A stretch of 20,000 bases of DNA from an uncultured virus (IMG/VR IMGVR_UViG_3300044701_003393) (IMGVR_UViG_3300044701_003393); one strand, 5' to 3'; shown: positions 1,571-7,465, counted from the first letter of the stretch. Translations and numbers: made by a program. The notes: generated by a model from the sequence alone, not told the origin.

Positions 1571-1750
1571 TTATTCTCCACCATCTCCCCCACTTCCATC
1601 TCCACCATCTCCATTACCACCAGCACTTGAGCGACTTCTTACAGGAACTGCTTTTCTTTTTGGAATTTTTTTTGATTTTCCTCCAGAATAAACAGTGTGA
1701 GGAATTGCATTTTTATATGCAATTTCTTTGAACTCTTCGAAAGATTTCAT
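1571..1750 (-). CDS. Small 59-aa protein, basic middle and Gly/Asp-rich tail; putative internal head protein
   Basis: Hand-translated, not in the ORF track: MKSFEEFKEIAYKNAIPHTVYSGGKSKKIPKRKAVPVRSRSSAGGNGDGGDGSGGDGGE*. Late-promoter motif CTAAATA at 1766-1760. Fills the gap between hsp20 and the terminator. Confidence 0.75.
   Translation of the reverse strand: MKSFEEFKEIAYKNAIPHTVYSGGKSKKIPKRKAVPVRSRSSAGGNGDGGDGSGGDGGE
1575..1621 (-). repeat. Imperfect 9-bp tandem repeat (GGAGATGGT-like) encoding a GDG/GDGG tail
   Basis: Plus strand reads tctccaccatctcccccacttccatctccaccatctccattaccacc. Confidence 0.6.
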
Positions 1751-1759
1751 TTTTATTTT

Positions 1760-1766
1760 TATTTAG
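1760..1766 (-). promoter_or_regulatory. gp55-type late promoter (CTAAATA) overlapping the hsp20 stop codon
   Basis: Close to T4 late consensus TATAAATA; 9 nt upstream of the ATG at 1750. Confidence 0.6.
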
Positions 1767-2197
1767 AGATAATCTTTACGAGTATGATGTTCTGGAACAA
1801 TCTTACCAAGAACAATAGTTAACAATCCATCCTCGAAAGTGACATCCTTGATTGTTGTGTCATCGGATAATGTCCATGCTCTCTTAAAACTTCTTTGAGC
1901 CAATCCCTTATGGACGTAGCGGGTATCAGTTTCTCGGTCTTCCTTTTGTCCTTCAACAAAAAGTTTTCCATACTCTGTGTATACATAAACCTCCTCCTTC
2001 TTAAATCCGGCAAGTGCAAGTTCTAAGCGAGATTCTACATTGCTTACTTGAACAAGATTGTATGGCGGATAATTAGAGGTAGTTTCATGAAGATTGAATA
2101 GGCGATCAAAATATTCGTCCATTCCAATACTGTTGCGAGTAATCTTATCCAACAAAGTAGAAAGATCCGCAGTAGTATATCGTGAAAGGTTAGTCAT
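1763..2197 (-). CDS. hsp20: Small heat-shock protein (Hsp20/IbpA family)
   Basis: YPPYNLV, ELALAGF, HKGLAQRSFKRAWTL, FEDGLLTIVL motifs; AGGAG SD at 2210-2206. Confidence 0.95.
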   Translation of the reverse strand: MTNLSRYTTADLSTLLDKITRNSIGMDEYFDRLFNLHETTSNYPPYNLVQVSNVESRLELALAGFKKEEVYVYTEYGKLFVEGQKEDRETDTRYVHKGLAQRSFKRAWTLSDDTTIKDVTFEDGLLTIVLGKIVPEHHTRKDYL

Positions 2198-2203
2198 TAT
2201 GGT

Positions 2204-2252
2204 AGCTCCTTTTTAAAGCGAGTTTGTGTTTTGTGGACCCTCTCGGCATCCA
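2204..2252 (-). promoter_or_regulatory. Structured hsp20 5' leader; ROSE-like RNA thermometer candidate
   Basis: CUC-G-CUU/UAAA/AAG-GAG hairpin pairs UCGCU with the SD and bulges a G. A 5' hairpin UGGAU-G-CC-GAGA-GG-GUCCA precedes it. TATAAT at 2265-2260. Confidence 0.6.
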
Positions 2253-2274
2253 TAATATAATTATACAAGATAAG

Positions 2275-2310
2275 AAAAAAAGAGGTACGGAAAAAACCGA
2301 ACCTCTTTTT
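2275..2310 (-). terminator. Intrinsic (possibly bidirectional) terminator downstream of regA
   Basis: AAAAAGAGGT-T-CGG-TTTTTT-CCG-T-ACCTCTTTTTTT. Confidence 0.75.
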
Positions 2311-2358: not shown

Positions 2359-2796
2359 TTATTCGGTTTCTACACCCTTTCCCTTTTTACCAATATTATA
2401 TTTTTGTTCCAGAATCCAATCGCCTTTATCTTTATAAGAAAGAACTTTGATCTGATTCAATGGTGCAATATCAGATACAGAATCTTCCTTTACAACTGTA
2501 ATCAGTCCCCAGTCAGAAAGAAGACGTGCGATACGGTTGCGACGCTGAACGTCATTTACTGTAAGGTTTGCGTGTTTACCGTCGAGAGCAAATAGTTCCT
2601 TAAAATGAACGATGTAGTATCTTCCCTGCTTATGCAGAATATGGCAAGATTGGTAGAGTTTTTTCTCTTTACGTGATGCGACTCCGATTCGGGTCAAAGT
2701 TTCACGAACTTTCAGAAAGTCATCAGGTTCATTAAGAATTACCTCTACCATTTGGTCTTGAGACCAATTAACAGTAGGTTCTACCGTAGTAGTCAT
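2359..2796 (-). CDS. regA: RegA translational repressor
   Basis: EPDDFLKVRETLTRIGVAS, LYQSCHILHKQGRYYIVHFKELFALDG motifs; follows g62 as in T4. Confidence 0.97.
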   Translation of the reverse strand: MTTTVEPTVNWSQDQMVEVILNEPDDFLKVRETLTRIGVASRKEKKLYQSCHILHKQGRYYIVHFKELFALDGKHANLTVNDVQRRNRIARLLSDWGLITVVKEDSVSDIAPLNQIKVLSYKDKGDWILEQKYNIGKKGKGVETE

Positions 2797-7052: not shown

Positions 7053-7421
7053 TCAGCGAAATTCAGAGAGACCATTATCTTGACGAGAGTAGTGACCGTC
7101 AAAGTGAAGAAGGAGCATAGCATAGTGAATGACTTTCAGCAAATCACGCTTATTGCGTCCATCCTTATCACCATAACGAGAACCATATTTTAAAATATTT
7201 GCCTGACAGAAACCAGGAGCAAGATCTTTTGCTGCCATCAGGTCAATAGTTTGAATGTCCCGATATTCTTGATTGTGACCGCAATAATGACTTCCATAAG
7301 TACTAGTCACATACTCCTGAATGTCTTTCAGGATTTTATCTTCGTTATATTTCCAAAGATGATTTGTTGTTTCACTCATAGTAATAGTAAAAGTTGTTTC
7401 AGTCATAAAAAGAGGAGGCAC
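7053..7421 (-). CDS. DUF3310/SaV-like protein (T7 gp1.7 nucleotide-kinase-related family)
   Basis: SHY...IQTIDLM...GFCQANILKYGSRYGDKDG...DLLKVIHY pattern. Start uncertain (GTG 7421, ATG 7406 or ATG 7379). Confidence 0.7.
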   Translation of the reverse strand: MPPLFMTETTFTITMSETTNHLWKYNEDKILKDIQEYVTSTYGSHYCGHNQEYRDIQTIDLMAAKDLAPGFCQANILKYGSRYGDKDGRNKRDLLKVIHYAMLLLHFDGHYSRQDNGLSEFR

Positions 7422-7434
7422 TTTTTACCTCCTC
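7407..7434 (-). terminator. Intrinsic terminator after cobS-like gene
   Basis: GAGGAGG-TAAAAAGTG-CCTCCTC-TTTTT. Confidence 0.65.
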
Positions 7435-7436
7435 AT

Positions 7437-7465
7437 ATTCTATCAGTTTGCTTGCTGTTCGTCAA
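7437..7465 (-). promoter_or_regulatory. Sigma70-type promoter TTGACG-N17-TAGAAT in the 3' end of cobS-like gene
   Basis: -35 at 7465-7460, 17-nt spacer, -10 at 7442-7437; positioned to drive the g45-g44-g62-regA cluster. Confidence 0.7.

Follow-up and report, generated by a model that had tools for sequence, protein, structure and literature searches.

Work by Waldminghaus in 2009 reportedly tested the leader of Escherichia coli ibpA as an RNA thermometer, and the ibpA and ibpB leaders are both reported to be tested thermometers (Waldminghaus 2009; Gaubig 2011). A phage-borne RNA thermometer is known as well, that of lambda cIII. Within Rfam, the family ROSE_3 (RF02523) is one that we take to have been built on Pseudomonas ibpA leaders. 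The Pseudomonas ibpA leader consists of two hairpins and is a tested thermometer in which hairpin II melts while hairpin I stays folded; hairpin II is sufficient by itself, and deletion of the unpaired G abolishes induction, according to Krajewski, Nagel and Narberhaus 2013 (PMC3669281, accessible text). A fourU thermometer element is described for the SPbeta prophage gene blyA in the accessible part of PMC10586365, and a 2024 review, as far as its text is accessible, still treats phage RNA thermometers as speculation (PMC10884466). In the open-access literature searched, we found no report of an RNA thermometer or a ROSE leader on cyanophage hsp20, and the words phage and virus are absent from a ROSE survey (PMC11342760).

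In a comparison of 16 genomes of T4-like cyanophages, Sullivan et al. found 25 genes common to all, hsp20 among them (PMC3037559, accessible text). The small heat-shock protein (sHSP) of these phages is nearer bacterial class A than cyanobacterial sHSPs, according to the accessible part of PMC3827213, which makes no mention of the promoter or leader of the gene. We conclude that this core cyanophage gene carries a conserved ROSE-family leader, and our analysis makes thermosensing by that leader probable. Specifically, we favour, with moderate confidence, the reading that the hsp20 leader is a ROSE-type two-hairpin leader that would gate Hsp20 translation by temperature. Since the leader is kept in related phages and shared by bacterial relatives, temperature probably sets chaperone output at the level of translation. 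A preliminary description of this DNA had called the leader ROSE-like, and that characterisation is upheld by the two hairpins, an invariant bulged G, covariation, and the presence of the same leader type at bacterial class-A sHSP genes.

The window, that is, the whole 20,000-nt stretch of DNA analysed here, is part of a T4-like cyanomyovirus and sits at C1:4769-24768 of a 60-kb IMG/VR record. The region was matched by blastn in 159 phage records, all of them cyanophages or marine viruses. Along the minus strand, the gene order is clamp loader genes, regA, hsp20, small ORFs, and the start of a putative gp43-like DNA polymerase, a label given by eye from ORF translation and synteny. The phage small heat-shock gene that the preliminary description had placed downstream of the leader is indeed an HSP20-family gene (Table 1). 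Its product shares 32% identity with E. coli IbpA in a protein alignment, and has equivalents of IbpA Y34 and R93. Directly downstream of hsp20 is a 59-aa ORF (1571-1750, minus strand) with a basic middle and a Gly/Asp-rich tail (GGNGDGGDGSGGDGGE), for which a Pfam search returned no match.

Table 1. Features of the hsp20 leader and its surroundings in the window
Feature	Position	Strand	Details
Strong intrinsic terminator	7412-7446	(-)	GAGGAGGUA-AAAAG-UGCCUCCUC, then U run
regA	2359-2796	(-)	Pfam Translat_reg; neighbour of hsp20, upstream
Intrinsic terminator after regA	2274..2310	(-)	Stem AAAAAGAGGU.CGG / CCG.ACCUCUUUUU, then U run
Extended -10-like box TGTATAAT	2260..2267	(-)	TATAAT 2265-2260, TG at 2267-2266
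Hairpin I	2234..2252	(-)	UGGAU[G]CC-GAGA-GGGUCCA = UGGAUGCC-GAGA-GGGUCCA; fold -7.0 kcal/mol
A/C-rich linker CAAAACACAAA	2223..2233	(-)	Unpaired in fold
Hairpin II	2206..2222	(-)	CUC[G]CUU-UAAA-AAGGAG; bulged G2219
Shine-Dalgarno AAGGAG	2206..2211	(-)	Read from sequence
8-nt spacer and ATG	2195..2205	(-)	Spacer 2205-2198, ATG 2197-2195; predicted unpaired
hsp20	1763..2197	(-)	Pfam HSP20, E 6e-13; class-A (IbpA-like) small heat-shock protein, 144 aa

The minus-strand leader string previously reported was found letter for letter between the regA terminator and the hsp20 ATG. This terminator folds at -16.4 kcal/mol (z -5.55), and 0/200 shuffles fold equally well. Missed by the terminator scan and recovered by separate folding, it sets hsp20 apart from the upstream gene, and a listing of the loci places terminator-like hairpins, differing in sequence, at the equivalent position in relatives. 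The promoter scan of the window found no -35 box or sigma-70 pair on the minus strand. The hsp20 transcription start would fall at about 2253-2251, giving a leader of about 55 nt. Given the regA terminator and the -10-like box upstream, the hsp20 leader can be read as a 5′ UTR. Contigs from RNA runs cover 2187-2241 with 0-1 differences (share of words 0.04), from libraries that may contain DNA; one such contig extends upstream of 2258, and contigs cannot show the transcript start.

Across related loci, a crude regular expression finds a -10-like A/T hexamer 4-11 nt before the hairpin I bulge in 195 of 196 cases. The box upstream of hairpin I is TATAAT in 93/196 loci, often as TGnTATAAT, and (T/A)TAAATA in 78/196. 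The latter resembles a T4-type late promoter, and both kinds of box keep a fixed distance to the leader. Because two kinds of box precede one leader, the timing of hsp20 may differ among cyanophage lineages.

Within the leader, hairpin I has its bulged G at G2247 and a GNRA loop at 2244-2241, and in hairpin II the anti-Shine-Dalgarno (anti-SD) motif UCGCU (2221-2217) pairs with the Shine-Dalgarno sequence (SD). The GNRA-capped upstream hairpin and A/C linker of the preliminary description are thus both recognisable, the first as hairpin I at 2252-2234 with its GAGA loop, and the second as a stretch left unpaired. Linker length and sequence differ among phage groups, and the linker is A/C/U-rich throughout.

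We collected 212 cyanophage hsp20 loci from three protein-guided IMG/VR scans and four named phages. The arrangement CGC(U/C)-loop-(A/G)GG(A/G)G-spacer-ATG occurs in every one that has upstream DNA (10 of the 212 are cut off); in one locus, L116, the SD reads GGGG. There are 153 distinct leaders among these loci, and 150 were aligned with MAFFT, L057 and L204 being left out. Persistence of UYGCU/SD pairing in homologous leaders had been set as a test beforehand, and it is borne out: the columns of C2220, the unpaired G2219, C2218 and U2217 are invariant in 150/150 leaders, as are A2210, G2209, G2208 and G2206 of the SD. In the same alignment, the loop between the arms of hairpin II varies freely, and the spacer around the AUG is different in different phage groups.

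Hairpin I is more variable in sequence, with 88 distinct versions across 199 loci in ViennaRNA folds of the upstream part. Its 5′ side always reads Y-G-C(C), and its loop is of GNRA or UUCG type. The fold listing has hairpin I in all loci except L057, whose 5′ arm is gone; for the L203 group, L024 and L154, ViennaRNA drew an alternative pairing. At L057:634-703, the terminator and promoter box are gone together with that 5′ arm, the linker and hairpin II are intact, and the regA stop adjoins the 3′ arm of hairpin I. This hsp20 is presumably read from the regA transcript.

Among close relatives, mean pairwise identity of the leader is 84.9% (65 loci, those collinear with the window coding sequence), against 83.1%, 93.3% and 56.3% at codon positions 1, 2 and 3 in the same loci, and 57.5% over the 60 nt preceding the leader (76 loci).

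A covariance model, R1, was built from phage leaders only and applied to 100 of 127 distinct cores. It gave exactly one match in each of the 100 sources, and scored 64.8 bits in the window. Over the 100 model-aligned leaders, 94.6% of cells are paired, compared with 36-62% in slid controls. The alignment of leaders also provides the covariation that had been sought: both-sided changes occur at 7/13 pairs, a level reached by 0/500 shuffles. Most of this covariation is located in hairpin I, where 4/7 pairs change on both sides (UA/GC/AU; AU/UA; CG/UG/UA). Constraint on the SD keeps variation in the pairs of hairpin II low. Few lineages have changes on both sides here: in the P-HM group, A-U takes the place of the U-A pair seen elsewhere, and L198 and L199 read GAC[G]CU/AGGUC, with both arms altered and pairing and bulge preserved. 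In L198:360-418, L199:360-418 and L219:347-406, the hairpin II variant is GAC[G]CU-UAAGG-AGGUC, and the SD has partly moved into the loop.

The exact register of hairpin II deserves comment. ViennaRNA prefers GCUUU/GGAGC in the window, a pairing that hides the SD too, and in which 74.5% of cells are paired across the 100 leaders, with no covariation and no bulge. Sequestration of the SD by CUC(G)CUU/AAGGAG around a bulged G, as first proposed, holds up better: 98.7% of cells are paired in this register among the same leaders, and RNAalifold independently predicts it.

When applied to whole records, R1 found a single strong match, always at hsp20, in P-SSM2, P-HM2, Syn1, S-SKS1 and our own record (58-71 bits), the second-best matches in these five having E 0.25-0.65. 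In P-SSM2, hsp20 lies between purL and purM, away from regA, and the leader is still present. The leader also bears on gene annotation in P-HM2 (NC_015284.1, PHM2_147; L082:589-663). Here, the annotated hsp20 start stands directly after the regA terminator, and PHM2_147 as annotated translates through the promoter box and the entire leader. The leader SD and ATG place the start at L082:661, 24 codons downstream of the annotation, and most relatives align to the annotated protein only from residue 12-13 on.

The folding energy of the leader alone is no better than chance. The whole leader has z -0.55, with 53/200 shuffles folding equally well, and the separate hairpins have z -1.80 (hairpin I) and -0.93 (hairpin II). 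The pattern CTCGCTN{3,9}AGGAG has one match in the 20-kb window against an expected 0.04, and 8/200 shuffles had at least one. Comparing SD occlusion within the window does not single out hsp20 and is not informative: hsp20 ranks 5th of 17 putative starts from crude gene calls, and at least one of the four starts above it is an artefact, the top one being a terminator stem. This terminator, at 7412-7446 on the minus strand, folds at -17.9 kcal/mol over a 76-nt stretch (z -3.2), and the crude gene calls had taken its stem to be an SD. Rfam matches to Spy490380c, Arrc11 and SpF25 (E 4.7-7.1) overlap the terminator after regA and were taken as chance. The leader stands above chance by virtue of its conservation, covariation and homology.

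That homology can be seen in Rfam. The ROSE_3 model aligns with all of its 69 positions (1-69) at 2192-2255 on the minus strand; E is 4.8e-4 when all 4227 families are searched, and 9.8e-6 for the phage's own 60-kb record. The model and the window share the hairpin I core GGAUGCC...GGGUCC and ACUCGCU...AGGAG. The ROSE assignment of the preliminary description is therefore sustained by a full-length ROSE_3 match, and falls short in two respects: the match lies below the gathering score (29.5 vs 43 bits), and the ROSE and ROSE_2 models had no match in the window at E <= 10. The remaining attributes of ROSE elements are all found here. The leader is the 5′ UTR of a class-A sHSP gene, ending at the ATG of a Pfam HSP20 gene, and it has the U(U/C)GCU/SD pairing, the unpaired anti-SD G, and one 5′ auxiliary hairpin. 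Leaders of bacterial class-A sHSP genes from other phyla score 22.6-33 bits with ROSE_3, so that its threshold looks tuned to the seed taxa.

These bacterial leaders come from 25 loci found by scanning species-representative genomes with the phage Hsp20 alignment. At 19 of the 25, from many phyla, protein identity is 30-44%. R1 matches just upstream of the sHSP gene in 12/19 at E <= 0.05 and in 16/19 at E <= 0.4, and the remaining three have less than 80 nt of upstream DNA. All 16 matches (16/16) end at an in-frame, open ATG. Rfam ROSE_3 itself has sub-threshold matches in 5/19. The metagenome-assembled genome (MAG) labels of these loci (L221-L239) include Acidimicrobiales, Sphingobacteriales, Fischerella, Melainabacteria, Pelagibacter, Rhodobacteraceae and Thiothrix. 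In the Melainabacteria MAG (L236:310-334), the hairpin I core GGAUGCC-GAAA-GGGUCC is letter-identical to that of many phages; this core is near-identical to the ROSE_3 consensus, and its bulged G is always kept. An RF02523 search of 151 genomes of the class to which the Thiothrix MAG (G001) belongs gave no match, and the controls were likewise silent.

At the other six bacterial loci (L215-L220), protein identity is 68-83%. The phage leader is present at five of them; at L220, no more than 9 nt of upstream DNA is available. The labels of the six are Psychromonas, Acidibacter, Actinomycetota, Thermoplasmata, Paceibacterota and a Prochlorococcus single-cell genome, and they are likely to be phage DNA in MAGs or single-cell genomes, or to come from an infected cell.

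In E. coli, R1 has a match of 15.3 bits (E 0.003) to the ibpB leader, which it aligns as two hairpins and whose SD hairpin reads ACUC[G]CUU/AAGGAG. The ibpA leader scores 100.4 bits with ROSE_2 and has the SD hairpin CUC[G]CUG/CAGGAG. Among viruses, a pattern scan of IMG/VR found ACTCGCTT-N2-7-AAGGAG in at least 120 loci (L241-L360). Among the matches listed, at least 85 precede an sHSP gene, 71 being of the cyanophage type and 14 being other sHSP genes, more IbpA-like, from other phages; Pfam HSP20 matched 14 of 21 tested fragments from these loci. The same hairpin precedes an AhpC/TSA peroxiredoxin gene in L251, and an ORF of no family in L271 and L306.

Judged by sequence, then, the phage leader is a homologue of the two-hairpin leaders found at class-A sHSP (ibpA-type) genes in bacteria, and two-hairpin ROSE_3-like leaders extend far beyond the alpha- and gamma-proteobacteria, where ROSE elements have been described. 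Being common to the phages and to bacterial relatives of the gene, the leader most likely entered the phage lineage together with hsp20.

We infer temperature sensing from this homology to tested thermometers, those of Pseudomonas ibpA and E. coli ibpA. Hairpin I, with its bulged G and its tetraloop of GNRA or UUCG type, is a stable cap at the 5′ end, and hairpin II a weak stem that holds the anti-SD UCGCU on the SD AAGGAG and leaves one G bulged. In the mechanism that we propose, hairpin II would be closed at low temperature and the 30S subunit kept off the SD; as temperature rises, hairpin II would open and Hsp20 would be translated. Ambient temperature would thereby set the phage's chaperone supply directly, without any protein acting as sensor. 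Hairpin I probably helps folding or shields the 5′ end, and feedback of Hsp20 on its own leader may be added on top.

Energies were predicted for hairpin II alone, leaving out non-canonical pairs. The phage median is -3.1 kcal/mol at 25 °C and -1.6 kcal/mol at 37 °C (range -2.9 to 0; n=203), and the commonest version (73/203 loci) has -5.0 kcal/mol at 10 °C and -3.7 kcal/mol at 20 °C. The corresponding hairpin of E. coli ibpA has -5.1 kcal/mol at 30 °C and -3.5 kcal/mol at 42 °C, and the aquatic bacterial leaders have a median of -0.8 kcal/mol at 37 °C (15 of 16). Since the phage hairpin II is predicted to be weaker than that of E. coli ibpA, these models give a hint, and only a hint, of a cooler set-point than in enteric ibpA, perhaps some 20 °C lower. 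Hairpin II may, on such estimates, be largely open at 20-28 °C. When the full leader is melted under the nearest-neighbour model, the SD is at least 80% paired at temperatures up to 45 °C and still paired above 45 °C, so that melting in silico neither shows nor dates a switch.

Temperature might also be sensed indirectly, if the leader is mainly an operator through which free phage Hsp20 represses its own translation. Aggregating proteins in the infected cell would then titrate the chaperone, and translation would rise. We regard this as rather unlikely to be the main role, and self-repression and thermometer may coexist. In E. coli, Cedecea and Vibrio, IbpA acts on a ROSE-type 5′ UTR to repress its own translation, and this requires R93 and the aromatic Y34, according to the accessible text of PMC10474464. 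Equivalents of both residues occur in 8/8 aligned phage Hsp20s, and R97 in 7/8. Further, the hairpin I core GAUGCC-loop-GGGUC, with its bulged G, is conserved from the ROSE_3 consensus through the Melainabacteria MAG to the phages, which exceeds the needs of a folding aid. However, the K98 equivalent is replaced by A, V, S, N or Q in all eight (8/8) phage proteins, and the R93-equivalent arginine is a general sHSP residue, so its retention says little for self-repression.

The sequence conservation of hairpin I and the linker exceeds the needs of a plain thermometer. We speculate, tentatively, that gene and leader constitute a dual sensor cassette moving as one piece between bacterial phyla and into phages, in which hairpin II would read temperature and hairpin I would dock the sHSP. 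If so, a lytic cyanophage would gauge both heat and protein aggregation, tuned to cool water, and would thereby set its supply of chaperone in infected cells without a host regulator.

Alternatively, the 5′ UTR might be structured and unregulated, with hairpin I guarding the mRNA 5′ end and a strong ribosome binding site (RBS) retained from a bacterial donor without any switching. The weak predicted hairpin II (the median at 37 °C given above) would fit this, as would the persistence of the gene in L057 without the hairpin I 5′ arm and promoter, and a stabilising role of hairpin I was suggested by Krajewski et al. (PMC3669281, accessible text). Yet an unregulated RBS needs no anti-SD, and here 150/150 leaders have the same anti-SD arm with the same unpaired G, around a loop that is free to vary. 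The leader is also much more conserved than synonymous sites, and L198 and L199 altered both arms while keeping pairing and bulge. We consider the absence of regulation improbable.

Finally, we think it very improbable that the conserved stretch is a DNA site or the site of another protein, whether a Pho box for host PhoB or an operator for RegA, the phage translational repressor: a putative Pho box, ATTCAAACTCGCTTAAATA, has been placed upstream of S-PM2d hsp20 and coincides with the anti-SD arm, and regA adjoins hsp20 in the window, but both hairpins have compensatory changes, as expected of pairing in RNA, phage groups differ in the spacer around the AUG, the leader accompanies hsp20 away from regA in P-SSM2 and in bacteria without regA, and the S-PM2d gene was unresponsive to low P (PMC10976474, accessible text). 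The Pho-box reading is rejected on the published EMSA, in which PhoB did not bind the S-PM2d hsp20 fragment (PMC10976474, accessible text), and that of a RegA operator found no support.

If the leader is a thermometer, as we favour, it would be the first of the ROSE class in a virus, and would provide a direct, protein-free link from water temperature to phage chaperone supply. T4-like cyanophages kill a large share of ocean picocyanobacteria. Such a link would bear on how infection outcomes shift with season, depth and warming. More generally, these leaders suggest that a regulatory RNA can be carried along when its gene is transferred horizontally, and they show that the two-hairpin ROSE form has a far wider distribution than one would gather from the Rfam family, which is centred on Pseudomonas.

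How does the phage leader compare with known systems? Like that of Pseudomonas ibpA, it is a 5′ UTR of about 60 nt in front of a class-A sHSP gene, contains two hairpins and no more, and leaves the AUG unpaired. In both, hairpin I is stable, carries a bulged G and includes the core GAUGCC...GGGUC, and hairpin II pairs U(U/C)GCU with the SD. Unlike the ROSE_3 model, the phage hairpin I is shorter, with 7 pairs vs 11, and unlike in Pseudomonas, hairpin II is weaker and closed by A-U. In Pseudomonas, G-C pairs flank the SD/anti-SD core, as described in the accessible text of PMC3669281, and it is not obvious that the phage has both of them. A phage -10-like or late-like box serves as promoter, rather than one for sigma-32, and the carrier is a lytic phage of cyanobacteria.

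With E. coli ibpA and ibpB (Rfam ROSE_2, RF01832), the phage leader shares the SD hairpin as the same module. The ibpA leader of E. coli exceeds it in length and in number of hairpins, and the E. coli SD hairpins are predicted to be 2.6-2.9 kcal/mol more stable than the phage median at 37 °C. The IbpA self-repression system has the same gene class and the same leader type as the phage; it is demonstrated for gamma-proteobacterial IbpA only, and the K98 equivalent is not kept in the phage (PMC10474464; bioRxiv 10.1101/2020.04.20.050740; accessible texts). The fourU element of blyA (PMC10586365, accessible text) and lambda cIII belong to other motif classes, in temperate phages and on non-chaperone genes. 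Among cyanobacteria, the hsp17-type system, which belongs to the sHSP class of the hosts themselves, is, like our proposal for the phage, a translational thermometer on an sHSP gene; it consists of one hairpin, differently designed and lacking the UCGCU motif, according to the accessible parts of PMC4152365 and PMC4477652, whereas the phage leader is of the class-A type.
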